From positions 106,950,001 through 107,014,000 of the forward strand of contig OZ320314.1 in NCBI GenBank assembly GCA_976226885.1: a stretch of 64,000 bases of DNA, read 5' to 3'. Positions 4,389-40,764 of this stretch are shown piece by piece (within the stretch, counting starts at the first letter, position 1; every line of letters begins with the position of its first letter). The notes under the pieces were generated by a model. The model was not told the DNA's origin, did no database searches, and worked only from the letters and a program-made list of their open reading frames with translations. The stretch comes from Iphione sp. A-MEVVRFRX5. Lineage: Eukaryota. Both the position numbers and the translations under genes were made by a program.

Positions 4389-4438
4389 ATATATTATCTC
4401 TGTAAAGGACACAAGAGGTGGTGGGCTTAGAAGACTCC
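4389..4438 (-). repeat. Element 1 terminal repeat B2 (50 bp)
   Basis: Identical to 4608-4657. Confidence 0.95.
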
Positions 4439-4462
4439 TTTATTAAGAAAAAGGAAAAAGAA

Positions 4463-4657
4463 AAAATTTTAACAGCTGTGACGGTTATGAACAGATGGTA
4501 ACGTCATACAAGAACATTGTTGTCTTGGTGCTGTGGTTACCTTAGTATCATCTCCAAGGGAATCAACAGATATACATATATTATTATAAATATACTATTT
4601 ATAATCCATATATTATCTCTGTAAAGGACACAAGAGGTGGTGGGCTTAGAAGACTCC
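4463..4657 (-). repeat. Element 1 internal B1-A2 junction (A2 about 4463-4609, B1 4608-4657)
   Basis: A2 matches 8480-8626 and B1 matches 4389-4438; they overlap by AT at 4608-4609. Confidence 0.95.
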
Positions 4658-4666
4658 AAACCCCAA

Positions 4667-5683
4667 CTAAGGGTCAGAAAATAAGTTAGCATCACAGTCA
4701 AGCATAGAGTTAACATCAAACTCTAGATAATCATAAATACTTTTGGATTTCCAATCACCACAAAATCTCAACTCCTGCAAAGACACACCATGCTTAGAGA
4801 GAAAAGTTGCACCACCTCGTCTAAACGAATGTGATGATACTCCGACTAGGCCACAGGCCAAACACGCACTTCTTAATCTGTCTCTAAAGGTGTTATAAGT
4901 TAAACATTTAACATTTTTACCTTTCCTAAACGAAAAAATCAAATCGCTAGGTATAGGCTCGCACAAAATTTTCCATGCCTTGAGCCAAGTGACTACACAC
5001 ATGGCCTTACAACCACAAAAAGATAAAGGCACACATACCTCTCTCCCACTACCGCCGAGGGTCTTACCCCTGCAAATCCTCACCAAAGCTCCTCTTTTTA
5101 CAAACTTAACGTCCTCCCACCTCAGACCCCGGGGCGTGGTGTATAACTCCTTTCTCAAAAGGCAACGATAGGCCAAACTACAGGCCAACCAAATAATTCG
5201 GTCCCAAACAACATCCATTGAAAAACAACTAAACAGCGCTAACATATCATCAAGAGTCAAAGCCAGTGCTCGTTTAACTGGTCTGCTGTTCATACGCTTA
5301 ATACCTTTAAGAACTTCTTGTACATAAAAGTTCTTCTCATAATTAAGACTGTAACCTCTTGACTTGCAGTTGAAAACAAGCGCAGACAGATAATTCCTCA
5401 CCGAAGAATAACACATTTTCCTTGCTAAAAATGTGAGGTACATGCATAAATTAATCATACTACAAGGTAGCAGGGAAACACCTATGGAATTACAGAAGTT
5501 CCTATATGACTCCCACTGCGTACATCTCGCCTTCTTAGTGTTCTCTGCAGCTGAATTCTCCATCAATTTGGACATCTCCTTCAGCAGTGCCTCTCTCTCT
5601 CCTGCAAAGACATTGAAGGACTTCGCTACAACAACAAAAACTTCCCCATGGTGAATCGCATAGCTTTTCCAATATATTAACAT
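4667..5683 (-). CDS. Element 1 tyrosine recombinase (intact frame; true coding start may be the splice acceptor at 5601)
   Basis: Catalytic-type motifs CLLRK, RGKT, SHSFRRGGAT, GDW and IYDY. The ORF overlaps the RNase H end in the +1 frame. Confidence 0.93.
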   Translation of the reverse strand: MLIYWKSYAIHHGEVFVVVAKSFNVFAGEREALLKEMSKLMENSAAENTKKARCTQWESYRNFCNSIGVSLLPCSMINLCMYLTFLARKMCYSSVRNYLSALVFNCKSRGYSLNYEKNFYVQEVLKGIKRMNSRPVKRALALTLDDMLALFSCFSMDVVWDRIIWLACSLAYRCLLRKELYTTPRGLRWEDVKFVKRGALVRICRGKTLGGSGREVCVPLSFCGCKAMCVVTWLKAWKILCEPIPSDLIFSFRKGKNVKCLTYNTFRDRLRSACLACGLVGVSSHSFRRGGATFLSKHGVSLQELRFCGDWKSKSIYDYLEFDVNSMLDCDANLFSDP

Positions 5684-7592
5684 CGTACAATCTAGAGAGA
5701 CTATCAGCTATTACATTCTCTTTACTTGGTATATAATCAACAACAAATTGTATGTTAAATATACATGCTGTCCAAAAAATTTCTTTTAACCATCTCTGAC
5801 AACATCTATCTCTACTCCGCCCAGTTTTAAGCATATAAAGGACGCACATATTATCAGTGATGAGACGTACTGTACAATTTTTTAAAAGATGACACCATCT
5901 TTTGAGTGCAATAACTACAGGCCATAATTCAAATACGTTAATGTGCCTTTTATATTCGTCCTGACTGGGAACATCTTCATAGTGGCCAACCAAAATGTCT
6001 CGGGGGATGTTACAATTCTCCCACTCTCCAATGAACCAGTCATCGCACATATATCCACCAAACATACCTAATGATGAATCAGTAGTTATACATTCTGTTG
6101 GCTCTCTCGGATTAACAATTTTTCTTTTACCATTGAAAATGTTTATGAAAACTTGCCACCATTTAATTTCACTCATTACAGCTTCATCTAATTCTTTTTT
6201 CATTTTATAATTTACAAAAGAGTTAGTGAACTCATACAAACTCCTCGTAAACGTGCGACCACCTTTCACCACTGTCGAACAATGAGCAAGCAAACCGGTA
6301 AGCTTTTCCATATCCTTCTTACACACTTTCTTTGCTGACAACACATGGTTTATCTTCACTTTTGTTTCTTCCACTTTGCTCAAAGGAAGTCTCAACTCAA
6401 GCATACTTGAATCAATTTCAATACCCAGAAATTTACAAATAGTGTTAGGTTCAGTTACTTTTTTGATTGAAACATCAAAACCAAAGTTACTTATTACTTT
6501 CATCATAACTTCCTTATAAAAGTCACATTCATCATAGCTTTTACCCACAACAATAAAGTCATCCAGGTAATTTACAGAAAAACCACCGCATTGACATTCA
6601 AATTCCCCTTTGATTACATCTGAGATTACAGAAAAAATATAAGGTGCACATTTCAATCCAAAACATAGCTAATTGTTAATGAAGTATTCTTTACCTTTCC
6701 CTAAATCCCAAGAGAAACCTTGAAATTCTCTATGCCCGGGATACACTTGGACACTGCGATAAGCATTCTTTATGTCAACTACCGACATAAATTCATCACC
6801 TTCCAGAGCATAAGCAACATCATCAACAGAATTGTACTTAAACGCATGGTGGGTAGAAGACATAAAATTGTTAATACTGCTGCCCTCAGGCATAGAACAA
6901 TCAGTTATCGGACGGAGTGATCCATCACTTTTCTCTACTCCACCCATAGCGTTTACACATCTAGGTTTTGACTCACATCGAGAAATAAAACCCTGATCAA
7001 GCTCAGTAATTAATTTTTCTGTCATCTGTTCAGAAAAATCATCTGTGAGAATAGATAAGTAGTTATTACAGTCATAGGAAGTATTACATTCTTCATCAAC
7101 AATTCTGAAGCCTTGAGTAACACCAGACCAAACTAATCTTATTTTTTCTTCACATAACTGGCTGCAACACAACGCAAATAACCAGCGGCACGGCTTCAAC
7201 TTGCATTCTACACCACCTATAGCATAGTTACAAGCACAACTACCTAGGATACATTCCCGGTACTCACGAATGATGGCATCACCATCTTCATCCTTGCCAG
7301 TTACCACGTAATTTTCTAGCATGCCTTCCTCTACTGAAATCAGATTCCTAAGGCATGACTCAAACATTTTCATACGATAGAAAACAACATCTTTTTCATG
7401 GGGGTGCTCTGCGTAGCTCTCATCATGACCTATCGTCACTATGCTCTCCTCGGTTGAGCAACTACTATTGTCCGCATCCAGAAGCTCAACATCGTCAACA
7501 TTATCTGTAGATAGAACAAATCTATTATTCAGTTCAATCACAAATACCTCGTTGTTGTATCTCGAAGACTTCTCAGCGGATGAAGCACACCG
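5535..7592 (-). pseudogene. pol: Element 1 pol (RT-RNase H) with one in-frame TAG at 6669-6671
   Basis: Motifs KSDGSLRPITDCS, DIKNAYR, FGLKCAP, NYLDDF, FLGIEIDS, TDSS, INVFELWPV, TDN and NVIADSLSR. ORFs 6669-7541 and 5535-6656 are in the same frame. Confidence 0.92.
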
Positions 7593-8452
7593 TCAATGTT
7601 GTTTTGACGTCGTCTTCATCTTCCTCGACTCGTCTCCATCTACCGGTTTAGAAGCAAAACACTCGTACGCTCTATGTCCGCCAGAGCTGCAATTCAAACA
7701 CTTATGCTGATAAATACAACTACTGTCGCTGCATTCGCCTGCATTATATTTGAAGCAAATTTTTTCTCCCTTCCACGACTTCTTCGAGGTCTTGTTCTTC
7801 GCAAACCCTGTCGTTGCATCCACACCCATATATTTATGGATCGCTTCGGTGTCGCCGTAGCTAAACGCACTCGTTCCTTGATGTGCTGCCCTTCTTCTCA
7901 ATTCTGCATCATAGCTCACCAACGACTTGATACTGTAGACACGAGTCGAGGCTTTTGTGGCCAGGAAGGACAAGTGCTCCACGTAAGACGAGACATCCTT
8001 CTTCTTCTTAATCATCTTCTGCAGTAGGCCTAATGACCCAACCATTAGGTGCTCGAAGCTCGAGATGCTGTCTTCATCTGTATAACGGATAATATCATAC
8101 TTCTTCACCCTCTTACCCTGTTTCTTTTCTTCTTCCTCTCTAGCCTCTTCTTCACCTCAGCATCTTCAAAATCCGAATCGGAAAAATCGTCTTCATCACT
8201 GCTAGAGGAAGAAACCGAGGAAACACTTCTAGAAGGTGACTTTCTCTTCTCTTTCTGCTTGTCGCCTTTGCTGTTCACCAATGCCTCCATCAGCGACTCC
8301 AACCTCAACAAACGGCCCTTAACGTCATCTCTTGGATTATCTGGCTGCTTATCAGCATCACAATGTCCATCAACGTCATCTTGAGGTAACGAGCAACCTT
8401 TTCCAACTGGAGGCGGATGGTTGACTTTACATCTCTTGCAGTATTTACCCAT
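7593..8452 (-). pseudogene. gag: Element 1 gag-like ORF1 with one frameshift near 8120-8135
   Basis: N-terminal CxxCxxxH-x7-C (CKRCKVNHPPPVGKGC) and C-terminal CCCH+CCHC fingers (CFKYNAGECSDSSCIYQHKCLNCSSGGHRAYEC). It aligns with the continuous gag of element 2 if one A is restored in an A-rich run. Confidence 0.85.
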
Positions 8453-8479
8453 CGTGGCATCAATACGTGTGTCGTCAAC

Positions 8480-8626
8480 AAAATTTTAACAGCTGTGACG
8501 GTTATGAACAGATGGTAACGTCATACAAGAACATTGTTGTCTTGGTGCTGTGGTTACCTTAGTATCATCTCCAAGGGAATCAACAGATATACATATATTA
8601 TTATAAATATACTATTTATAATCCAT
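8480..8626 (-). repeat. Element 1 5' repeat A1 (147 bp)
   Basis: Identical to about 4463-4609; TATAAA on the minus strand at 8615-8620. Confidence 0.95.
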
Positions 8627-11347
8627 GTATACGACGTTTGTAAACCATTTATTTCTCCCTCATTCTTGTCTCCTCCTCCTCCGTTTGTTGCAATTATCTC
8701 CTATTATTTTACGTACCATAAGTAGTTATGTTTCGTTGTTGTCCCTTAGCGGGTTGTAGTTTCTTCCTTTCACCCATCTTGCTTCTACGTTGAAACCTAC
8801 AGCTAAGGATAGGACGTGGACCAGTTAATGGTTTCCTGAGCAGGGAAAATACCAATGAAGTAGTCATCTGTAATATATTTAGCGCCAAACTAAAGCTATA
8901 GAACAATTCACTAAACACAACTTTACGCCATTAGGCTGTTTACTGTTCGTGGAAGATTTCCTGTAAAAAGACGTCATTTTTACCAGGAATCAGTGGTAAA
9001 ACGTTACAAGGCTGCAACCACCTTGCGAATTAATGTAGAAAGACAAGCTATAGCTCATCTTCTTCCTTAGATCCTTTAGTTTCATATGAAGTTTGTTGCG
9101 TGAAAATCGGGCAATTAAGAGTCGTGTTCTTTGCTTGAGAAGGCAGTTTTCCTTAGCGTTTTACACATGACAGCCAGCAGAACGTAAACACTGTCGTCGG
9201 TTGACCTATGTCATTCACATAATCTCATTGGTTGCCACTAAGTTGTGGTATCATATCGACGTTGGTTAATCAAAATTGGACTAGCCTCCCAGAGATGCAG
9301 TCCAGCTGAAACAAAACACGATCAGGCACACACGTGGAAATACCAATATATTTGTCTCATATGGATTAATTTATAATGCCTCGTTGAATGAGTGTGCATT
9401 GGGAACTATTGCTAGTGGTTATTCCAGCAATATTTGATGACTAGTACCTTAAGAGGTGCCTCCGCAGAGAGGCGATCGCTAGGAAAATCCCGACTTTAAA
9501 GCAAAAAAGTCAAAAGATTACCTCATTAAAATCTGGTCTAAATTCACAAAATAAATCGATAGATCAACTGTTTCATCAACTAGATTTGTACGTAGGTTGT
9601 TTATGGGGGAAGAATATCAAAGATTCCGATGGGAATGAGACTGAAATGGAAACGACTACGGTTCAAGTTGACAAAAAGACAAAATGTTCTATGTGATAAA
9701 AGACTAAAAACCGACATAGTATCATTCCAAAAAGGAGCCATCTCAGCCCTTAACCTGATTCTATAAATGTGCACTGATAAACCAACGATTTTCTGGATCT
9801 ACCTAACATTTTACCTTGTTATGTGTTTCAAACCTAACCCTTTCTCTAGAGACATCTTGTTAATGATGGCATATTTCTCTCGGTGATGCTCCATCCAAAC
9901 CACTTGGTGAATATGTGTAAGTTAGGCTGAGAGAGAATGTCAACAGTTCATCAAAAAATAAGTCCGACCCAAAACATGTCGCTAACCTTAAGTGTACTGG
10001 GTGTCCGTTTAGTCAAAGACATTCATTCCCGTTTAAGTATCTGATGGTTAACCCTTCTTCACACCCTCACCCCCTACGACCACCCACCCCCCTGTCAGGG
10101 GGAGGGGAGACTGTGTCGTCACTGGATGGGTGGGTGGGAGCCGCGATACGTGCACTGTCGTCGGGATTTGCTTCACCTACAGATCCGCAGCAACTAGTGT
10201 TGGCGCTTACATGACTAGCTTAAATGGAAAAAAACCTAGTATCTGGTATCTCTACTTATGATACTTTGTCCCGGTAGTTCTGTCTTCACATTAGTTGGTA
10301 TATTTTATTGGTAACACTTGGTATCTTTATCCATTGCAGGTAGAAAAATTAATTTACCTTCATCAATTTTGCCGAAAAAAACACAAACGATTAATATCTT
10401 TATTATGGTACAAACTCAGAATTATGATCAACCTTTGGAGCAAGTAATTTTGCCATCTACACTGAGCTTCCCTGCTACCTATATTGGTTGTGGTATAAAA
10501 GATAAACCATTGGGACCAGTCGAATATATGAATTGAATACAAACTCATGAAGGTAGCCCTTGCACCATCCTGGTGGAAGAAAACTACGGGGAGTCTTCAT
10601 TTCACACATCAAAAAAACGCATTCAACAAAAGATATTCACGTACGCCCCGCACCGATGGAAGCAGTTCTGGGCACTCACATTGGCCATATTTCCTCACAA
10701 TCATGCACCAACATGCATGCCACTCATGGAAACATCGCTTTGCTTTGAGTACAAACTCACTTCTTGGTAATGCACACTTTCAGTGTGCAATACAGCAAGC
10801 TATAAGAATGACAAGTATTCAACAAGTACACAGTAAAACCGCACCATCCAGGTTTAGTAGAAAGCTAATCATACCATTTACTTTTGACATCCGACCAAGC
10901 GGCAAGAAAACAGCTGCATAAATGGACGATGCCAGAAGAAAGCCACTTGCTTGAGCTTAGTTGTTGTCTATTAAATTTTCAGCAACCAACAATTGATACA
11001 TTGCCATGTGACATGTTAAAATGATGTACGCCCATAATACCTGTCAATCAAAATGGTATTTGGCCAATGATGCAGTGTAGTCAATATCACATGTCACAAA
11101 TGTCCAACAACATTTCAGACAACATTTCATTGACGTCGTCACTCATATGTGCCAGGTTTTGTCTTGAATGGAAACACATCAGTTCTCCTGTGAAAAGAAT
11201 ACAGAACTGTGATGTTTCTGAGTAGAATTTTTTTTCTATTTTAACATTCTTTGTGACCATGTTAAAATTATGATTATCACAAGTCATTAATTATGCGATT
11301 ATGTCTATATGTAGATATATATCTATTGGAACATTGTAATGAATCAA

Positions 11348-11445: not shown

Positions 11446-12039
11446 GTTTCATGTCATTACATGGTTGAGTTATGTAAATGTATGGAAATAAATCCATATA
11501 TTAAAGGCAAAAATCACTTGATTGGAGCCTTCTCATGAAAGATGCATGGCAACTGTTGACAAAACAGCTTGAAATAGTTGGTATAATATGCCATGTGATG
11601 GGTTGGCCTGGCTTTGTGGCTGTATTGCAACGTGTCAATTGACCTTTCGCTAAGAGGCTAAGATATTGTGAAGGCTTTACTTCCCTTTGGGAACTAGTGT
11701 CACTAAAATCTCTGGAAAATTACAAGGTGCAGATAATATTCAACATTTCAGTGAAGTTTATTCATTGGAAAAATATATTAGTTCAAACTGATCATAGTCA
11801 CCTGAAACTGGGTCTTGTCCAAGCCTTCCCGAGATTATTTGTTTTTATTCAGAGATTTCACCTGGCATGCCATTTGGAGCCACGATTTCACCACACAGTG
11901 TGGTGATCTTTCTATGTACACACCTTTATGCATGTATGTTATATAATTAATATATTTGTATATTGCATAATATGGAGGAATGTTGACTCTATTGGGTAAC
12001 TGAGCAACTGATTTATTGATACATGCTATAACGACATAT

Positions 12040-14640
12040 GCTTGTTTGATTTTGACGGAGCATGATATACTATGCGAGCAGCTCAATTCGGAGAAGTTTT
12101 GTTGTAAATGTGACAAAAAAACACGTCTCTCCAGCCAGTAGAAAATATAGAAGAGTATCCTCTATACCTGATGAGGCAGTTAAATCAAAGAAACTGATTT
12201 TTCAGACGATTAAGAGGTGAACAAGCGATTTGAAAATAAAACAAGTGCATGCTGAAGGTTTTGATGTTGACGAGGGCTGATACAAGTTTGGTGCCCGTGA
12301 AGAAGACTACAGATGCAGATGAGTGCTCTACCAATGATAGTTTGTCATCCTCAGATGATGGTTTTGGTATAGTGGATGATGACTGTCAGATGTCATAGTA
12401 TTGTAAAAATTATAACTCTAATTTGAATGGCGAATCTAAGAAACAAATGAGTCGAAAAATAGAGTCTGAGGTGATGGAAGGTTTATTACTGAATGTAAGG
12501 AAAAGCCTCATGGTGTGAATGCTTTTTGGGGGGGGGTCCCAAAAGGTGATGGAAGCCTGCATCCTATAACGGACTGTTCTATGCCCCAAAACATTTTGAT
12601 TAACAATTTTATGAACATTACTCACCAAGAGATTAGGTATCATTCAATTGATGATGCAAGTAATGTACTAGAGTTAGGTGACTGGACGAGCACATGTGAC
12701 ATTAAGAGTGCCTACCGTTCTGTCGTGCTAAACCCTAATTATCATCAATTTCATGGTTTCAGTTGAGAAGGCACAGATAGTATATATATATTTTATGTGA
12801 ACAATACATTATGTTTAGGTTTAAACATCTTCAATGAAATCTCTGAATTTATTGTATCAGAGCTCAGGCATAGGTGTGACGGTTTAGTAATTAACTACCT
12901 AGATGATTTTATTGTGATAGCTAGTACTGAAAATAAATATGATGACATGCAACATGCATTGAAAGAAGTTATCAGTGATGTTGGTTTCACAGTGTGTCCC
13001 ACCTACGAGACAATGTTAATTTTTAGGTATCGTAGTAGATTCAGCTGAGATGGAGTTATCCCTCCCTAAAGGGAAAGTAGTGAGTGTGAAGTGTAAAATC
13101 AAGGAGGCCATTGAGAAGGGAAAGTTAAGGAAAAAGGAGTTTGAAAGTTTGACCCACTCCCCGTCACACTGTGTTTCTGTAGTAAAAGGAGGCCAAAGTC
13201 ACACAAGGAATCTATAATGTGATGAAAGAGTTGAAAGGAAGTAAAGAAACTGTAACCATTAATGAAGAAGTTATTGGGGATTTGAAGTGGTGGTTAAAAT
13301 TTATCAGTATTTTCAATAGTAAGAAGTGTATAATCAAAACCAGGGCAGTCTCAACTGTAACTGACTCTTCCTTAAAAGGGTTTGGTAGGTGGTTTGACAG
13401 AAACTGGTATTATGGAAAATAGGACAGTGAGATTTGACTTATTGATTGACCATCACCTCGAGACTCCACCTACTTTTGATGTATTTGACAAATACATTAA
13501 TAATTCTGAACTTTGGGTTGTCATGCTAGCGCTAAAAATATACTAAGATAGTGCTCTTCCCTGTGGATAATTAATAATCAGTATTATATATGCTGAGAAT
13601 GAGTAGAAGTAGAAATAGGCCTTGTATGAGAGGGCTTTGTGAAATTTTCTGGTGCTGTGTCCTGAGGAACATTGTTTTCAAAGTAGAATATATTTCTTCT
13701 GAGAGCAACTACATAGCTGATGCCATCTCAAGGGCCTATGATATACAGATTGTTAAAAGACTGTTGGATGATCTTTGGATCTGTCATGCATGCTGTGGAT
13801 ATAAAATCAAATTTATTTGCAGAGAAACTCTGGTGTCTGAAAAACGAGACGTCCATGCTGAAAGAGGAAGCCACATCAAGTGACACGAAATAATGCAGGA
13901 AACTTCAATTACAGTGATAATCAGATGATGCTCTTCCCTTGTAGATCATATTATGATCTGATCAGTTTTCCATGCTCATCATTTCAAGCTGAACTTAATT
14001 CAACGTATCTTTGCAGGGGGATGTGTTATAGCTCAATTACAACTACCTGTCTGGTCTTATTTATGGGTGTTTTGAAGTTATTTCACCAAGTTATGACGAT
14101 TTCAGTATTTCTCAAATTTTATCCGGTTTAAAAAGGTGTACTGATAGAAAACTTGTTTGTGCTCATGCCTTGACCCTGTTGCATTTAAAAATAATTATTG
14201 ATATCTCATTCTGACGTATTGGACCAGTTTTGCTGGTTAGCATGTATTGTTGTCTTCCGTTGTTTATTAAGGAAACAGATTTTCACCTCAAGTGATGGCT
14301 TGAGGTAGGGTGATTTTGAATTTTGCGATTTGAATGTAAACACCTATGTATGCAGAGGAAAATGTGTATCTTCTTCTTTGTAAATCTTATCAATTTTGTG
14401 TTGTGTCTTGGCTAAAAACTTGGCAAGTGAGACACCATTTGAGTGATGATCAACTTTTCTCATGTATCACTATTTTCTCATGTACACAATGGTAAAACTT
14501 TGGTCGTTGGTATATTTGCCTACAATTCATAGCAACCTCCTTATACAGTGGAACTAGAGCTCATAGTGGAGGCACAGTGAGTATAGTATGTGCTTCGCAG
14601 TTCAAATGGTAGTATATTATTCTTAGATAAGAGTTCACGA
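12040..14640 (+). mobile_element. Element 3: decayed, internally deleted Ngaro-type YR retrotransposon
   Basis: Remnants occur in order: gag start (KFCCKCDKK/HVSP), RT (PKGDGSLHPITDCS, DIKSAYR, NYLDDF), RNase H (TDSS, NYIADAISR) and YR (CYSS, WLAC..FRCLLRK, CVVSWLKTW, AHS-GG). Many stops and frameshifts; no 3' repeats found. Confidence 0.88.
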
Positions 14641-18985: not shown

Positions 18986-21072
18986 CTTGTTCAGTTGTGA
19001 TTGGGAGTGGTTTAAAGACAATTATGGGCCTGTCATGGTCTCATACCTACAAACGCTAATCCAAACAATGACTTTACGCGGTATATTAGCACACTTTGCC
19101 ATATAGGCCTAAAGAGAAAAAAAGATGGCCGCCATGCTTTAATACAGTTTAACACATATTCTAATTTCAATGGAAAATGAACTTGAGACTACTCATGTAG
19201 ATTGTTTCAAACTACAGGTATCATAAATAAATAAGCATTTATGTCAAGAATATGAACAAAGCATTGCTCTGCAGTTATACTACTTGCCATACAGATTATA
19301 ATAAGCTCCCGCTTAATTAGACAGATTTCATGAAAAATCAATGTAAAAGTGCAAAATTTGTAGATATGAAGTAATATCAACATGACTGAAATCATTTAGT
19401 ACACACTATAAAATATATAACGCATTGTAAAACCTTCTATCGGCTACTCAGTCTAACAGGTGTTCATATGAAAAGCACTATGAAAGTCTATGATCTAAAC
19501 TGACAGCTTGGAGACGATTATCAAGCGATTGAAAGCCAGAAATTCTGTGCATTGCTTTTGATCAGATTCAGATACAAATAAATACCATAAAAATCAAGAT
19601 CAATTGATAGATGTTTGTATTGGTACTTCGCAGGTGCCCGATGTACATCAGATGGCTTTTTATGTCGGAGTACTGGAGTACTTGCATTTCTATTAGGACT
19701 TTTCTTATACAAATAATTGTCTCTGTTTCAGTCCTTCGTTGGTGGAAATAGACCCTCTGGTGAGTACCTATATCCTCTACCTTCTGTTAAGGCTTCTCTT
19801 GTGCTTAGAAAAGACACTGAATTTAGTCTTCAAGCAGTTTAGGTGACCACGGCATCCGGGAAGGACAGACGTGACTATTGTTCATCACATCCACTGAGTA
19901 TTAGGCCGGGCTGAGAGAATGCGTCTTCAATGTTGCAGGTCTTGCGGCAGTGGTAAAAGCCCTGGCTGAAAAGTGAGGGGGGAAATGAGAGGCGAAAAAA
20001 ACTGTGTTTCTCATACGAAACATATCAAACATATCAATTTTGTTCGTAGTCGAATATAGTGTGTTCATGTCTGTGCAAATTGCTGAAGGACCCACTGACT
20101 AGGTGGATGAGGGTTAAAATGCAAGTGTAACAAGACACAAAACAGAATTTTATTCATAGCAGTGGACCCGTTGTGCAAGCCATCCAGCTACAGTGCAGCT
20201 TTTCCTGACAGCATGGTGGTTGCTGCATCACTTAATTAAATCCCTGAATTTGGAACATTCTCAACATATCGGCTGCAGATAGGTTGATCAGATCGCGGAA
20301 TTATGAAAAATGCCGTCACACTTATCCTATGTGGCAGAGGTACTGGCACAAGAGGCTGAAGGCCTACTTTTAAGATGACGCCTATTGGGCTGTAGTAGTA
20401 CATTCTCAGAATTCTCGTCTTCGCCATCGACAAGCGTCACTGCACAGATGTTAATGCTAGATGTCATGACGAAACCCATCTCACACTGGCTCTGGATGCA
20501 GTGACTGTTCATATGGCCTTTTTAAAATCAACAGCTGCACTGGATGCAATGTAAACGAAGTGACGTATAGGAACTGTCGTGATTGTCTGCCGTATTCATA
20601 TAATCCATTCATATATCTTTACACTGTACATACATGCGGGCCTCACTGTCTGCAAAACACAATGAAGCATAAAAGAGCTGTGGAAACCTTGCTCTAAAAA
20701 GTCGCCTGAAATGGTATAACCGTGCATGCATGTTCCTATATCATCGATATTTAAGTCTGGCTTTAGATCAAGCTGAAACACCATACCGCATACCGCTTAT
20801 AGAAACCAATGAAGGCATTTCGGAGCAAGTAGGACTGTATACTAGACATAGAGTACATAACTTGTAGACTGTATATCCAAGGGGAAGCGTTGATGTTTAC
20901 AAACAAGGAATTGAACTTCAGGAAGTTTGCAGCAATAATAGACTTCGCAATACTTGGATATCACTCCACAAAGGAAAATTTTATCTATATGTGCCCGCAA
21001 GCCACAGGAGTACATAGCATGGGACTATTTCGTTCTGAAAGGAGGTCTGGCATCAAATTGATATTTACTCAG

Positions 21073-22119
21073 ATGTATATGAGCAAATTCCAAGATATAA
21101 AAGGATACATTGCTGGTATTGTTGCAGGTCTACTTGATACTGTTACAAATGCATCTGCACAACTGCTCAATGATACAGTGCCTGTATTTCAACTTTGTTT
21201 CGGACGTTTATTTTGTCAGCTTCTTCTCTGTGCAGTGTATCTATTGTTAGTAAGAAATGCTAATCCCTTTGTGTATGGTTCACTAGTAAATGTACCATGG
21301 TTAATACTGACATTTGTTTTTAGTATGGTAACAAACATATATTTTATTAATGCCGTTTTCTACTTACCAATAGGAACCTTTTCCTTTTGTGTAATGGTAG
21401 GACAGTTATCATTTATCTCGGTCCTGATGCGTACCTTGTTTCACAAGAGAATCTCATCTTTTCAGTACATATGTTTTTTGTTTATTGCCGTTGGGGGTTT
21501 TCTACTTCTTCAGCCATTGCCTCATTTTCACCGCAACATTCACATGAATTGTTATGAAGTTCCTCAGCTTAAGCTCAGGCTCAACTTAAGCAGCTCAATA
21601 GACCATACATCAAATATCACTCCAAGAACTCCGACACAAATAGCCACTATAAAACAAATGAGCATTGGTGTCATTTTCGTCATCATTGGAAGTGCCTGTT
21701 CAGCTGGACGCACTGTCGTATTGCACAACATCCTATGTGAAGTACCAACAATTGTAATTAACTTTTGGGGCGCTACTTTTGGTTGTATTAGCATGCTACT
21801 ACTCCTGCTGTATATGGATGAACCTGTTGTTCCCCACAGCACAAGGGTTGTGTTCCTCATACTTGTATACAGTTTCTCAACCTCTTCTATGTCTATGACG
21901 TTTGTGTATGCTACACAGATGCTACACCCTGTTGCTTGTACCCTCCTGCTTAACATGTCTTGTGTATATAGTTTTATACTGCAAAATATTTTTCCTTGTG
22001 TCCTTATGAGTGGATATCGAAACATAGGTGAAGTGGTTGGGGCCGTCATTATATCTGGCAGCACAATTGCCTGTACCTATCTATCTCATATCCAGCAGGA
22101 TAATGTGCTCTTACATTGA
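21073..22119 (+). CDS. Intronless EamA/DMT-superfamily transporter, SLC35G-like (ORF open from 20890; start ATG uncertain)
   Basis: About 349 aa with about 10 hydrophobic segments in two repeats (VPVFQLCFGRLFCQ..., YLPIGT..., LFHKRIS..., GEVVGAVII). AATAAA at 22392-22397. Confidence 0.8.
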   Translation: MYMSKFQDIKGYIAGIVAGLLDTVTNASAQLLNDTVPVFQLCFGRLFCQLLLCAVYLLLVRNANPFVYGSLVNVPWLILTFVFSMVTNIYFINAVFYLPIGTFSFCVMVGQLSFISVLMRTLFHKRISSFQYICFLFIAVGGFLLLQPLPHFHRNIHMNCYEVPQLKLRLNLSSSIDHTSNITPRTPTQIATIKQMSIGVIFVIIGSACSAGRTVVLHNILCEVPTIVINFWGATFGCISMLLLLLYMDEPVVPHSTRVVFLILVYSFSTSSMSMTFVYATQMLHPVACTLLLNMSCVYSFILQNIFPCVLMSGYRNIGEVVGAVIISGSTIACTYLSHIQQDNVLLH

Positions 22120-32418: not shown

Positions 32419-33228
32419 TTTACAACCCTCAGTTCTGCTTGACTGAACACAGGGGTGTAGGAATACACCTAACTGAAAAGGTAGTCCCAAGTAGCACACT
32501 TTTTCATTTTCTTTGTTTAGTTTTTTGTGTATGGGACATCATATATCATTCTATATCATTTTAAAAAGTATGACCAGAAATATATGAAAAATAAACAAAT
32601 TATATGACTTTAAAAACATCTCACAACAATGAGACCTCCTCCCCATGGCCAGACTACTTTCGAGCAACGTTTTATAGGGGTAGTGTAAAAAGTAACTGAA
32701 TTAACTGCCAAGGTAAGCAGGATTCTACATTCTGTTTGAAGTGAAAATACATGCAGATAAACAGTATTGTACTATTGAAACATCTTAACTTCTTAGTGAT
32801 TGATAAATTTGAATCAACATAAGCATTGTATATCTATAATATAATCTTAACCAAAATGCTAATTATCTCGATGTCTTTGCGTGAATAAAACTAACATTGT
32901 GTCTTGTATAGGAATGTACCCCTTTGTCCCGCAGGTGCCACTAAAGCCCTAGTCGGCGTGTTGTTACACTACCTATATAAAACGTTGCTTGAAAGTAGTT
33001 CGGCCATGGGGAGAGGTATCATTGTGGTGTGATTTTCCAGATTTACCTTATTTTTGATGCTGATTGATCCATGAGGATATTTTAAAGCATGACAGAGATA
33101 GTTATTCACCTTTAGTGTATGTAAAATGCTTATTACTAAAAACATATGACATATGTAGCCCTACTTTCTACACAGAGTGCTGTATTCCTACCCCCTCTGT
33201 TCAGTCAAGCAGAACCAAGAGTTGTAAA
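32419..33228. repeat. About 49-bp imperfect inverted repeat pair 0.7 kb apart (possible non-autonomous DNA transposon)
   Basis: 32419-32467 is the reverse complement of 33181-33228 with a few mismatches. CTGTACTTTGACCCCT also occurs directly repeated near 32363 and 33242. Confidence 0.6.
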
Positions 33229-36438: not shown

Positions 36439-36493
36439 ATATTGAAGGAACGTGACAAACACACAAATTGGGGGTTTACACACAATTTCTGGC
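36439..36493 (-). repeat. Element 2 terminal repeat B2 (55 bp)
   Basis: Identical to 36667-36721. Confidence 0.95.
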
Positions 36494-36513
36494 TTTATTC
36501 ACTTCACAAAGAA

Positions 36514-36721
36514 AAAATTTTGAAGCAAAGTGGCGGTTGGTACTAAAGACATTCCATTCTACATGGGACGTCATCACAGAGCTAAGCATATTGCTGATGT
36601 TGGTAGGGTTACTGGAATACAGCATAATGGTTCCCAAGCAATATCCACATAAATACTTTATATGGCATATTGAAGGAACGTGACAAACACACAAATTGGG
36701 GGTTTACACACAATTTCTGGC
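36514..36721 (-). repeat. Element 2 internal B1-A2 junction
   Basis: A2 36514-36670 and B1 36667-36721 overlap by ATAT. Confidence 0.95.
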
Positions 36722-37688
36722 CAACCCCAAGGAGGAAGAAAAAACATAATCCTGCTTAAAAAGCTGTTCATCAACACATCTAATGTAAGAGTAAACAGCA
36801 TCACTCTTCCAACCACCCCTGTCCCTTATAGCATGAAGAGGTAGACCAATCCGAGCCATATGTGAAGCACCAGCCCGTGTGAGGTAACTCTCCCAATAAC
36901 TCCCCCTAGCTTGCTATAATGCTTAAGTGAAGCTTGAACCTCTCGTACTCAAAGAGACAAATAACACCTCTCTTCGAATATGAAAAAATTGGATCACATG
37001 ACACAACCTTAGTCAAGGAAAAAACCAAATTAAGCCAATACAATAAGCAAAACCTTTTATCACTACATTCAGAAATAACCAACTTCCTTGGATTCTCCCC
37101 AAACTCGTCAGTCTTCGACCTACGAATCATGACAGAAACTCTGTCACTACCTAAGACCACATCACTCCTCCTAATAACTGAATCGCCAGTATACTGACAC
37201 TTCCTAACTAGACATCTAAAACCAAGAACTACTGCACACCAAAACAGGTATGAATACAACTTTGAAAAATCCAAAACATCATAAATTCTAACTAGATCCT
37301 CCACTCGAAGGCCTTTAGAAACGTGGCTAGTAAAATATGCTGATCTCTTCAAACCAGCCACCATCCACCTAACAACAAAATCCTGTACATCAGGAAAGCT
37401 CATACCCTTACGTTTATGCTCATAAATCAAACCACTCAAGTAATTCGACACTGAAACTGGTGCCATAGAAAAAGACAAATATGCACAATATCTTCTGAAC
37501 TGTAGTTGACTACATGGAAAGGCCACTAAGTTGTACTTTTTACAAAAACCTCTATAAACTTGCAGTTGCCTCTCCCTTGTCCTGATGGTGTTGACAGAGA
37601 AAGCAGACGACTTGAGAGACTCAATCCGATCATCCAAACATCTAATCCGACCTGAAATCAAAGAGACACTCCTTACAACAGGCCTCAT
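36704..37688 (-). pseudogene. Element 2 tyrosine recombinase, disrupted near its 3' end
   Basis: Open to 36906 (FRCLVRK, RRSKTD), then a frameshift. VTSHG has lost the LRR of the HxxR motif with a second shift; GGWKSDAVYSY follows and the frame ends inside B1. Confidence 0.9.
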
Positions 37689-39588
37689 CCAACCATTCGG
37701 TCCATCTCACATCATCACATCTAATTATTCCATCAAATCTAGACAAGCTATCTGCTACAATATTATCCTTGGTATTCACATACTCACAAACCAATTTGAC
37801 ATTGTGCACCATGCATGACCAGAAAACCTCTTTCAACCACCACATACATCTCAGGTTTACACTTCTCCCCGTCCTAAGCATATACATAACTTAAGTGTTA
37901 TCGACCATAAACAACACTACTGAACCTCTCCACATCTGGCCCCATCTCTTCAGAGATATCACCACTGGCCATAGCTCCATCACATTGATGTTCTCATCGA
38001 CATCCTCCATTGAAGGCTTTTGTTCCAGATGACCACAGCCAAGACCATCCAGAACATCAACCCACGAACCCAAGAACCAGTCCTTGCCACAAAAACCTGC
38101 AAAGCCTTTGAACGATGAATCCATGTAACACACAAATGTAGGGTCACTCAATTTCATGATTTTACCTTCCCCATTGAAGATCCTCGAGAATGACCTCCAC
38201 CAGCTCAAATCCTCCAAGACGAGGGCTTCCACCTTACATTTCCTGTTATTCCTTGGTAAATGCTCAACCTGATCATAGAGACTCCTGCTGAAAGTCCTAC
38301 CACCGCTTATTATTGTCGAGCAGTGAGCCAGATAACCTGAAAGCTTCTCTCCTTCCTTCCTAGACATTTTGCCACTCACTAGAACATCATCAAGCATATT
38401 ACCCAGCTTCTCTAATTTCCCTTCAGGCAGTCTCAGGCGCATACAGATAGAATCAATCTCAATACCTAGGAACACACAGCAAGTGCTCGGGACTGTAACC
38501 TTCTTCCAAGATACATCAAAGCCCAAGCCCTCAATGATGCCTGTCAACAGATCCCTATTACGTAAACAAGCTTCATACGTCTCTCCTACCACCAAAAAAT
38601 CATCTAAATAGTTCACAATACCTGCATCTGACACCCGCCTATAATTCTCCACTACAAAATCGGATATTTGCGTGAATATATAAGGGGCACACCTCAAGCC
38701 AAATGTAAGCGTGTTATTCTCGAAATGCTGCTTCACACCATCCAAAACCCAAGAAAAACCTTGGAAACTCCTACAACCTGGGAGAACCGATACTGAACGG
38801 TAAGCATCGCTTATGTCAACAACTGCCATATATGTGCCAGTCTCCAAAAACTCACACACATCCAAAACCGAGTTATAATTAAACTCTTTAAACAATCCTT
38901 CCATGAAATTATTGATAGAGATACCATCAGGCTTAGAACAATCTGTAATCGGTCTTAAAGACCCATCCGACTTGGCAACCCCACCCATAGCGTGCACACA
39001 CTGGGGGACATGGTCTACCCTCCTTACAAAGCCTTGAGCCATCTCACATCTAATTTTTTCCGACATTTCCCTTCGAAACTGGTCCGTATCCAATGACTTA
39101 TAGTTCTTACAATAGTATGAATTACAAAAATCATCATTAACAATTTTGAATCCACAACAGACACCGGACCAAATATATGATCTCATCTCTAGGCTCTTGA
39201 ACCCAAAAGCACAACCTTTGAAAAACCTGCATGGCAGCAATTTACATTTCACACCATCCAACATGTGACTACAGTTACATGAATTTAACATACATCTCTC
39301 ATAAATATCAATGACTGTAACACCATTGAATACCGAATATAACAGATCTTTCGCTACCTCAGCGGGGTAGGATATTGATGCTTCATTCACAACATCACGC
39401 CAATCAATCAACAACCACTCCATACTATCTGTTGCAATCTCATTGAAAATATCACCCAACATAGCATGGCGATCCTCAGTCTCATCCACAACCACATAGT
39501 AAGAGCATTCAACATGGTCAAAACTTGGGAAGACAAAAATCTTCCCCACGTTCACTGTATTGCACCCAACAGGCACAGTACCATCTAG
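37642..39588 (-). pseudogene. pol: Element 2 pol (RT-RNase H) with one in-frame TAA at 37891-37893
   Basis: Motifs KSDGSLRPITDCS, NYLDDF, MDSS and INVMELWPV. DNT*VMYML is probably CAA>TAA of DNTQV; NIVADSLSR follows in the same frame. Confidence 0.92.
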
Positions 39589-40536
39589 TCACTTCTTGCT
39601 CACTTTCGAATCCTTACTTTTATCCATATTGTTGACATTTGCGGGACACTCATAAGCCTTGTGTTCGACTGAACCACACACCAGACACATGTGTTTTAAG
39701 TTACATGAATGATCATGGCATGTACCATTGTTAAAGCGGTAGCAGACCTTATCTGATTTACGACCATCAAAAGCTTTCTTCGATTTAGTTTTCTGCTGGC
39801 CACTTCTGCTATTACCACCCGTCGTCTGAACCATCATATCAAAGCTAAAATGACTGCGAATTAAGTCATCATTGCCAAAAGTAAAATATGAAATACCTTT
39901 CATCTCGGCTTTCTTACGGATATCATGGTCATAATCAATGAACGATGCATCTTTATACATGTTTTTAACGCGTTTTTCAAGCATAAACAGGATGTGATCA
40001 AGGTAACCGGAAACACACTTGCCTCTCTTCAGGTGCTGCTGTACCAATTTGACCGATCCTAGCATCAATTCATCAAAATTACTAATTTTCTTAACTTTCG
40101 CCGCAGAAGTCACATTAAAGTCCTTCTTCTTACCACTTGACTTTTTCTTGCGACTCTTAACAGCAGAATCTTCATCCGAATCATCTTCTGACGAACTCTC
40201 ATCAGAACTCGATGATGAAATGCCAGGCTTCTCCTTGGAAACTGCATCATGTTGCCGCTCCCCAGACATTGATGAACTCTTATCACCATTCGATGCCAAA
40301 AACATCGCAAACATGTCTTCCAGACGGCCCATACGGGAAGACAAATCCTGGCTATCACCATTACCATTACCATTGTCAGCCGACAAACCACAACAAGTAC
40401 CATTCTCCTCAGAAACACCATTAAATTCAACGAAATCCTCCGATGGGCCCATATCGGCCACCTGGAAAGCCATACGACAATTCTTCCCAATGGGGGGGCT
40501 ATGCCTCCTTCTACACTTTGAACAATGTCTGCCCAT
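39589..40536 (-). CDS. gag: Element 2 gag-like ORF1 (intact; ATG at 40536)
   Basis: N-terminal CSKCRRRHSPPIGKNC, an acidic Ser-rich tract, and C-terminal CYRFNNGTCHDHSCNLKHMCLVCGSVEHKAYEC. Confidence 0.9.
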   Translation of the reverse strand: MGRHCSKCRRRHSPPIGKNCRMAFQVADMGPSEDFVEFNGVSEENGTCCGLSADNGNGNGDSQDLSSRMGRLEDMFAMFLASNGDKSSSMSGERQHDAVSKEKPGISSSSSDESSSEDDSDEDSAVKSRKKKSSGKKKDFNVTSAAKVKKISNFDELMLGSVKLVQQHLKRGKCVSGYLDHILFMLEKRVKNMYKDASFIDYDHDIRKKAEMKGISYFTFGNDDLIRSHFSFDMMVQTTGGNSRSGQQKTKSKKAFDGRKSDKVCYRFNNGTCHDHSCNLKHMCLVCGSVEHKAYECPANVNNMDKSKDSKVSKK

Positions 40537-40607
40537 CCTCGATAGCAAAGACACAATGCTCAGAAGAGGCTAACGAAGCACACAGCAAAGGTACGTGTTG
40601 ACTCGTC

Positions 40608-40764
40608 AAAATTTTGAAGCAAAGTGGCGGTTGGTACTAAAGACATTCCATTCTACATGGGACGTCATCACGGAGCTAAGCATATTGCTGATGTTGGTAG
40701 GGTTACTGGAATACAGCATAACGGTTCCCAAGCAATATCCACATAAATACTTTATATGGCATAT
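40608..40764 (-). repeat. Element 2 5' repeat A1 (157 bp)
   Basis: Matches 36514-36670 with two substitutions; TATAAA on the minus strand at 40751-40756. Confidence 0.95.

Follow-up and report, generated by a model that had tools for sequence, protein, structure and literature searches.

Conserved in-frame UGA and probable Gag-Pol readthrough in Ngaro-type retrotransposons of Iphione sp.

Element 1 and its gag-pol junction

The stretch of Iphione sp. A-MEVVRFRX5 DNA described here (64,000 nucleotides, hereafter the window; contig OZ320314.1 of assembly GCA_976226885.1, positions 106,950,001 to 107,014,000 of the forward strand) contains a Ngaro-type retrotransposon, element 1, in which gag and pol share one reading frame and are separated by a single UGA. 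Its genes are ordered gag, reverse transcriptase (RT)/RNase H and tyrosine recombinase (YR). The features on which our analysis draws are listed in window coordinates, with the T of the gag TGA counted as +1 and a slash marking predicted splice junctions.

4389-8630, minus strand: element 1, Ngaro-type, split direct repeats A1..B1-A2-B2
8480..8630, minus strand: repeat A1 (5′ split direct repeat), 151 nt, 99% identical to A2
7593..8452, minus strand: gag, open reading frame (ORF) 1, with a CxxC..H motif at the N-terminus, a Ser/acidic plus basic stretch and a C-terminal Cys/His zinc finger
8111..8119, minus strand: predicted mid-gag splice donor AGG/GTAAGA, intron start 8116, phase 1 in the zinc-finger frame
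about 7757-7659, minus strand: gag Cys/His zinc finger, from position and sequence pattern
7590..7595, minus strand: predicted readthrough site TGA-CGG between same-frame gag and pol
7569..7580, minus strand: 5′ arm of a predicted 3′ stimulatory stem, +16..+27
7542..7550, minus strand: second donor-like site GAG/GTATTT, 45 nt 3′ of the gag stop
7471..7484, minus strand: 3′ arm of the predicted stem, +112..+125
5535..7592, minus strand: pol, with an acidic N-terminal linker, a Cys-rich region, then RT and RNase H
5600..5619, minus strand: predicted splice acceptor (pyrimidines..TTGCAG/G), exon start 5601, phase 1 in the recombinase frame
4667..5601, minus strand: tyrosine recombinase ORF (Phage_integrase, 4.9e-11)
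4608..4657, minus strand: repeat B1
4463..4613, minus strand: repeat A2
4389..4438, minus strand: repeat B2, the 3′ end of element 1

Across the junction the minus strand reads CAA CAT TGA CGG TGT, with the TGA at 7595-7593. The frame that holds the zinc finger (stop-to-stop ORF 7593-8156) runs on past this stop into pol, where it stays open for 307 codons (6669-7592), and its first ATG, at 7373-7371, is codon 74 past the stop. Re-reading of the minus strand confirms the first-pass annotation of this DNA, which had placed the gag TGA in frame with pol and counted 73 codons before the first ATG. That annotation missed the downstream RNA stem, the recombinase splice signals and the state of the copy itself. 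Element 1 is dead or damaged: its gag ATG (8452) is not in the zinc-finger frame, which is broken between about 8156 and 8107, and a TAG at 6671-6669 interrupts the RT.

Pfam matches RVT_1 above its cut-off (2.9e-8) and RT_RNaseH just under its own (1.3e-4); gag yields sub-threshold zf-CCHC matches only and is called from its position and zinc finger. The element 1 ORFs scanned gave no Pfam match to a methyltransferase, a domain whose presence after RNase H is a DIRS1-like feature. In unbroken copies pol stops 26-66 codons past the RNase H motif. By its sequence features, namely the A1..B1-A2-B2 repeats, the gene order and the missing methyltransferase match, element 1 fits the Ngaro elements of the order DIRS as portrayed in the parts of four accounts available to us (PMC3783388, PMC9210276, PMC6681497, PMC8547959), the trees having held unnamed elements only. 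The same parts describe Ngaro ORFs as overlapping or frameshifted and do not state by which route pol or the YR is translated.

The gag stop and its 3′ context in relatives

Relatives were collected from the 1.18-Gb assembly with four queries: junction DNA, the DNA of a third, heavily decayed element of the window, an RT protein and a distant RT. These searches returned 250 loci, of which 227 matched the zinc-finger pattern and gave 149 distinct junctions, the 23 non-matching loci being dropped. A usable RT fragment from 90 of 112 elements entered the RT tree, in which the subfamilies (F1 to F4 and a sister group, F5) are well-supported clades with long terminal branches, F2 being weaker (0.78). 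Clusters at 80% nucleotide identity among intact copies numbered 23/24, 37/41, 21/21 and 19/22, so that nearly all are separate families, and synonymous sites are saturated between families (proportion of synonymous differences, pS, about 0.8). Open pol frames span 630-700 codons in the sampled copies, most of which are separate families, and the load of such elements in the genome is very large and diverse, with 3895 RT and about 1830 YR first-look candidates. Two junctions were set aside from scoring, L240 (a sense CGA CTA at the site) and L108 (a frameshift just upstream of it), and L234 was scored at its homologous TGA, three codons past a premature TAG.

Fixation of the stop at the homologous site, a check suggested in the first-pass annotation, is borne out: TGA is shared by 133 of the 134 scored F1-F4 junctions. 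Its 3′ neighbour is equally constant in three subfamilies, with TGA-C at 32/32 distinct junctions in F1, to which element 1 belongs (CGG 16, CAA 6, CTA 6, CGC 2, CAG, CGT), 49/49 in F2 (CTA 40, CTG 7, CAA, CCA) and, always as TGA-CTA, 30/30 in F3. Pooled, all 111 F1-F3 junctions read TGA-C and 92 of them continue as CGG or CTA; TGA-CTA is followed by G in 54 of 77. F4 junctions carry TGA in 22/23 and a +4 C in just 3. A restriction of positions +4 to +6 to CGG or CUA, which the first-pass annotation had suggested testing, does not hold: the C is fixed in F1-F3, but CTG, CAA, CAG, CGC, CGT and CCA occur beside CGG and CTA, and F4 mostly lacks the C. The codon after the F1-F3 stop is C-initial in every case and encodes Leu, Arg, Gln or Pro; in pol as a whole, 10-11% of codons are C-initial, CGG accounts for about 3% of the Arg codons, and CTA for 10-12% of the Leu codons.

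Other stops of the same elements serve as an internal control. Among 60 full-length loci, 58 of which were scored at each site, the gag stop is TGA in 58/58 compared with 13/58 pol ends (Fisher p 2e-20), and TGA-C occurs at 45/58 gag stops compared with 1/58 pol ends (p 7e-19), both p values ignoring kinship among families that are synonymously saturated. The pol ends use TAG 23, TAA 22 and TGA 13 times. YR-type ends likewise use all three stops, with TGA in 31/64 and TGA-C in 1/64, a count that holds some spurious matches.

These comparisons bear on the alternative that the decay of one copy has produced the TGA by nonsense mutation, or that the host decodes TGA as sense. The damage elsewhere in element 1 fits such a reading, as do the sense codon of L240 and P0189, a protein of a different assembly (known as protein only) with Trp at the junction. 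The stop is nevertheless identical in nearly every F1-F4 family, TGA terminates pol and YR frames in the numbers just given, and TGG is used 951 times in 48,080 codons of open pol frames. The alternative is refuted, and the comparison indicates that the TGA at the gag end is not a chance stop of a dead copy. A sense codon or a random context in relatives, named in the first-pass annotation as the contrary outcome, is not what was found: L240, an F3 copy whose gag-pol frame is open, is the only sense copy among 136 F1-F4 junctions.

Because the first F1 and F2 sets had been chosen through junction similarity, 60 further loci were picked solely by recombinase similarity. A zinc finger was recognised in 35 and none in 25, and TGA-C recurred in 25/29 of the F1 and TGA-CTA in 6/6 of the F2 junctions. 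Beyond this genome, a first metagenome scan with one protein and a viral scan found no relative, and a Gag-X-Pol protein query found 1 distant protein. A metagenome set of 54 loci (23-47% identity) was then available, 31 of which are cut, broken or without a recognisable in-frame gag. The other 23 have a gag-like zinc-finger ORF in the same frame as pol across one stop, and with 2 duplicates removed their junctions read TGA-C in 16/21, TGA-ACG in 2, TAG-G in 2 and TAA followed by ATG in 1. The two in-frame gag-TAG-G-pol junctions (L262, L264) resemble the gammaretrovirus context. Metagenome pols end after RNase H, with no methyltransferase match in 7/7 scanned, and clear split direct repeats were seen in 3 of the 10 relatives examined.

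The sister group is organised differently. F5 gag stops are TAA 7, TAG 4 and TGA 2, and pol lies in a different frame from gag in 11/13, the 11 being those that could be anchored. Stop-start overlaps with an ATG in the pol frame occur as TAATG in L238 and L244 and as ATGA in L236. TAATG or TGATG is also present in L237, L241 and L247, and the sister group is thereby a candidate for termination-reinitiation.

Predicted stem, pol start and splice signals

Pairing downstream of the stop was assessed by an alignment-free test in which each copy's own window pairs were compared with pairs drawn from other copies, over 130 window pairs. One combination stands out, +7..+36 with about +84..+133, and it does so in F1 and F4 only. 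The cognate duplex has -6.9 kcal/mol in F1 (best of 11 in 18/29, p 4e-8) and -5.0 kcal/mol in F4 (best of 11 in 11/20, p 5e-5), while the remaining 128/130 window pairs gave p 0.02 or more. The F1 stem was replicated in 28 new copies (-6.4 kcal/mol, 17/28, p 2e-6), and in a fixed register at least 8 of 10 pairs form in 18/29 F1 copies as against 11.5% of non-cognate pairs. Codon-sized indels shift the 3′ arm in F1.

The predicted F4 stem pairs +14..+33 with +105..+127 in two helices and was seen in L123-L136, L196, L200, L210, L234 and L248-L250. On a gap-free alignment 85% of its cells are paired and two-sided changes occur in 13/17 pairs; 0-2 of 500 shuffles score as high, and slid registers reach 35-43%. 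These statistics are optimistic, because the structure was derived from the same sequences. The internal loop carries GA on both strands (19/20 and 20/20) together with a 3-nt purine-rich bulge, a pattern with a coding alternative in that the tandem GA also starts Asp/Glu codons. Kink-turns consist of a canonical stem, a 3-nt bulge, tandem GA/AG pairs and a second stem. The F4 stem matches this at the level of sequence, as a putative kink-turn, and the UGA that precedes it is in most copies not followed by C.

A kink-turn-like element beside a UGA raises the question of selenocysteine, with the F4 structure acting as something like a selenocysteine insertion sequence (SECIS). The stop is almost exclusively UGA, many F1 and F4 copies have a Cys two codons on (X-x-Cys), and the F4 tandem GA pairs are of the kind bound by SBP2 and L30 in SECIS elements, according to the part of the source seen (PMC2761289). 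With E values up to 5 allowed, Rfam found no SECIS in any of 8 elements, its 3 sub-threshold matches in these being all unrelated, and a rough pattern scan gave 9 hits in 109 elements, at no shared place, against 4 in shuffles. The bulge of a SECIS lies on the strand opposite to that of the F4 bulge. Other stops are moreover tolerated, as TAG with the stem intact in F4 L196, TAA-CGG in F1 L351 and TAG-G in the two metagenome relatives, and F2 and F3 have no Cys partner. Recoding as selenocysteine is accordingly highly improbable.

Pol lacks a conserved start codon of its own, and the stretch upstream of its first ATG has the properties of coding sequence. The first in-frame ATG after the stop varies from codon 3 to codon 187. 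Stops upstream of it number 6, 2, 23 and 0, compared with 125, 131, 97 and 33 expected, the F3 excess probably coming from damaged copies. In F1, an IELxD..LSxD motif precedes any ATG in 44/51 copies, and identity by codon position over this region (0.71/0.85/0.48) follows a coding pattern. Long open frames of 802-971 codons, considered as possible gag-pol fusions, were rejected as such and are pol-YR fusions.

Pol could instead be made separately, ribosomes reinitiating after termination or starting internally at an AUG or near-cognate codon further 3′; coupling would then be the reason why the UGA context is kept. The F5 stop-start overlaps lend this some weight, as do the F4 copies with an ATG at codon 5-6 (10/22) or codon 41 (7/22). 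The frequent F4 ATGs (codons 5 and 41), however, are the two arms of the covarying stem, where columns 16-20 pair with 121-125, and the other F4 copies have AAG, AGG, ACG, GTG, TTG or GAG at these positions. The scatter of first ATGs in F1-F3, often behind conserved motifs, and the avoidance of stops before them also speak against a separate start, which would moreover need no shared gag/pol frame. We regard it as unlikely. An internal promoter for a pol-only transcript, with TGAC as its DNA element (an AP-1/CRE-like half site), is less probable by some distance. It would account for TGAC being invariant across F1-F3, and the Tca2 junction of Candida albicans has a minor promoter, according to the part of the account available (PMC2194720). 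A DNA site, however, needs no in-frame position at the end of gag, pol lacks a conserved ATG, covariation is seen in the RNA stem, and F4 keeps the TGA without the C.

Splice signals form a second conserved feature, and they are shared by the other well-delimited element of the window.

36439-40764, minus strand: element 2, Ngaro-type, subfamily F2, split direct repeats found
39585..39591, minus strand: element 2 gag-pol junction TGA-CTA-G, gag and pol in the same frame

Element 2 reads AAG TGA CTA G (TGA at 39591-39589), an arrangement as in element 1. Its gag is open, a TAA lies inside RNase H at 37893-37891, and the recombinase end is broken; its donor (intron start 40133) and acceptor (exon start 37651) are likewise on the minus strand. 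Of 92 elements, 91 have the acceptor at a fixed distance 3′ of the RNase H motif and 90 have it in phase 1 relative to the YR frame; many F2-F5 copies have no ATG close to it. A phase-1 donor about 520 nt 5′ of the gag stop occupies the same column in F1 (22/24), F2 (23/24) and F3 (26/29), and in F4 (18/21) and F5 (10/13) such a donor is the best local one, at more variable places. The predicted intron is about 2.5 kb and phase 1 at both ends, from 8116 to 5602 in element 1 and from 40133 to 37652 in element 2. The spliced mRNA would join the first part of gag to the recombinase exon, skip the UGA and encode an N-terminal Gag-YR fusion, and these signals suggest that the recombinase is probably made in this way.

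The strong donor in gag also invites the idea that a spliced mRNA carries pol past the UGA, as in foamy viruses, by joining the mid-gag phase-1 donor to an acceptor just within pol. F2 often has a phase-1 TTTCCAG/G at +61..+73, and TGA-CTA-G includes a YAG. The F2 site tracks a Phe-Pro protein motif, with CCA/G in just 16/46 copies, a phase-1 acceptor within 45 nt exists in 2/31, 1/49, 2/30 and 0/23 copies, and the G after TGA-CTA is far from constant. Such an mRNA would leave the fixed frame, the +4 C and the stem unexplained, and we consider it very unlikely. The TGA region as a branch point (CATTGAC; consensus YNYTRAY) was rejected: F2 has AAGTGAC instead, and no acceptor is conserved downstream.

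A second donor-like site 36-46 nt past the stop occurs in F1 (21/24, phase 0, AG/GTAT) and F3 (26/29, phase 1, T/GTGAGT at +43) with conserved synonymous positions, and AG/GTAT is present in 20/28 new F1 copies. In F3 it may lead to a Gag-readthrough-YR form; alternatively, under the 50-nt rule for mRNA decay, it may allow gag mRNA to escape decay. Nineteen shortened or odd loci were also inspected: L026 and L332 retain the acceptor pyrimidine tract and L361 breaks within the RT. Only in L363, a pol-deleted F1 copy, does the 3′ breakpoint coincide with the predicted recombinase exon start, and this copy may have arisen by retroposition of a cryptically spliced RNA.

The third element of the same order, at about 11900-14450 on the plus strand, is by search closest to F3. 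Outside all three elements, a 428-codon stop-to-stop ORF lies at 20833-22119 (plus strand). Nested inverted repeats at 32419-33228 (37 and 53 nt, 89% complementary) are possibly a small DNA transposon.

Probable Gag-Pol readthrough and its place among known systems

Taken together, the shared frame, the identity of the stop, the +4 C, the stem and the coding stretch ahead of the first ATG favour programmed UGA readthrough as the source of Gag-Pol in these Ngaro-type elements, to which we give a probability of roughly 0.88. Reinitiation, a spliced pol mRNA, selenocysteine and an internal promoter are disfavoured because each leaves several of these features unexplained. The first-pass suggestion that this lineage makes Gag-Pol by readthrough is thus supported by a fixed TGA and a pol without a conserved start. 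Most ribosomes would terminate at the UGA and release Gag, and a minority would read through it to give a Gag-RT/RNase H fusion, perhaps for the purpose of a Gag:Pol ratio. The residue inserted would be one of the near-cognate set for UGA, Trp, Cys or Arg. Readthrough would be helped by the +4 C and, in F1, by the predicted stem (about +12..+35 with +100..+130). From the distribution of these features the subfamilies appear to use different stimulators, the strong UGA-CUA(G) context, with no stem found, in F2 and F3, UGA-C with a stem in F1, and a covarying stem without the C in F4.

Several observations weigh against this reading. The +4 C is missing from 20/23 F4 junctions, and the exceptions among the 29 F1 replication junctions comprise 1 TAA-CGG, 1 TGA-TGG and 2 premature stops. 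The window-pair test gave no stem in F2 or F3 (F5 also gave nothing below p 0.02), none is shared across the 21 metagenome junctions, RNAalifold predicted no pairs on the F1 alignment, and the z-scores of single sequences reach modest values (F1 mean -1.36, 2/16 under -2). The linker before the first ATG has a ratio of nonsynonymous to synonymous differences (pN/pS) of 0.70-0.87, a weak signal from saturated pairs, and ATGs at codon 5-6 or 41 are frequent in F4. Among the 60 loci picked by YR, none is a clear retroposed spliced copy. Finally, the 300-nt junction of Tca2, the nearest retrotransposon case put to the test, failed to direct readthrough in Saccharomyces cerevisiae and had a minor promoter, according to the portion of the report seen (PMC2194720).

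The nearest parallels are viral. Type II readthrough sites (alphavirus nsP3/nsP4 and the replicases of tobra-, furo-, peclu- and pomoviruses) use UGA-CGG or UGA-CUA, and the F1 stem is similar in size to that of Venezuelan equine encephalitis virus (8-9 nt spacer, 11-12 bp, 101 nt loop), as given in the part of the source consulted (PMC3159437). The product is a polymerase fusion in both cases. The present elements differ in being retrotransposons known from sequence alone, in using more C-initial triplets, and in the loss of the C from most of F4, whose stem has a kink-turn-like internal loop. The gammaretrovirus murine leukemia virus also makes Gag-Pol across an in-frame stop (PMC2194720, seen in part) but uses UAG-G with a compact pseudoknot, in contrast to UGA-C with a predicted long-range stem here, and our elements show no protease or DDE integrase. 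In Tca2, a Ty1/copia element, an in-frame UGA likewise separates gag and pol; it is a long terminal repeat element and a single family, whereas here the signal is kept across a deep clade. From the Ngaro elements of the accounts cited above these differ in having gag and pol in frame across a UGA and conserved YR splice signals. In the Xenopus Ngaro, according to the partial account available, all ORFs overlap, a hydrolase included; the ORFs scanned here gave no hydrolase Pfam match.

Literature searches and a term search of the accessible text of PMC8547959, PMC3783388, PMC9210276, PMC7192593, PMC6681497, PMC3266345, PMC2632668, PMC12440569, PMC5009743 and PMC13517186 turned up nothing on readthrough or YR splicing in the DIRS order, though Gao 2003, Goodwin and Poulter 2004, Poulter and Butler 2015, Repbase or supplements could contain a remark on it. 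The mechanism itself is known; its use by DIRS-order elements is new as far as the literature we found goes. More tentatively, readthrough may be ancestral and widespread in a deep Ngaro clade in which interchangeable stimulators have been swapped, one lineage having exchanged the UGA-C context for a long-range stem whose kink-turn recruits an L7Ae-family protein (eL30, 15.5K or SBP2) beside the terminating ribosome; we hold this to be possible but doubtful. The literature yielded no description of a kink-turn-type readthrough stimulator outside selenocysteine recoding. If true, ancestral readthrough and a spliced gag-YR mRNA would make up the complete expression programme of these elements.

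A leaky UGA together with a predicted splice gives a testable answer to how RT and recombinase could be expressed from one transcript, and it would extend the readthrough signal of alphaviruses and plant viruses to a transposon order. More than 100 naturally diverged candidate readthrough cassettes, including a covarying kink-turn-like stem without the +4 C, become available for studies of termination, and elements with this gag stop should not be scored as broken on its account.

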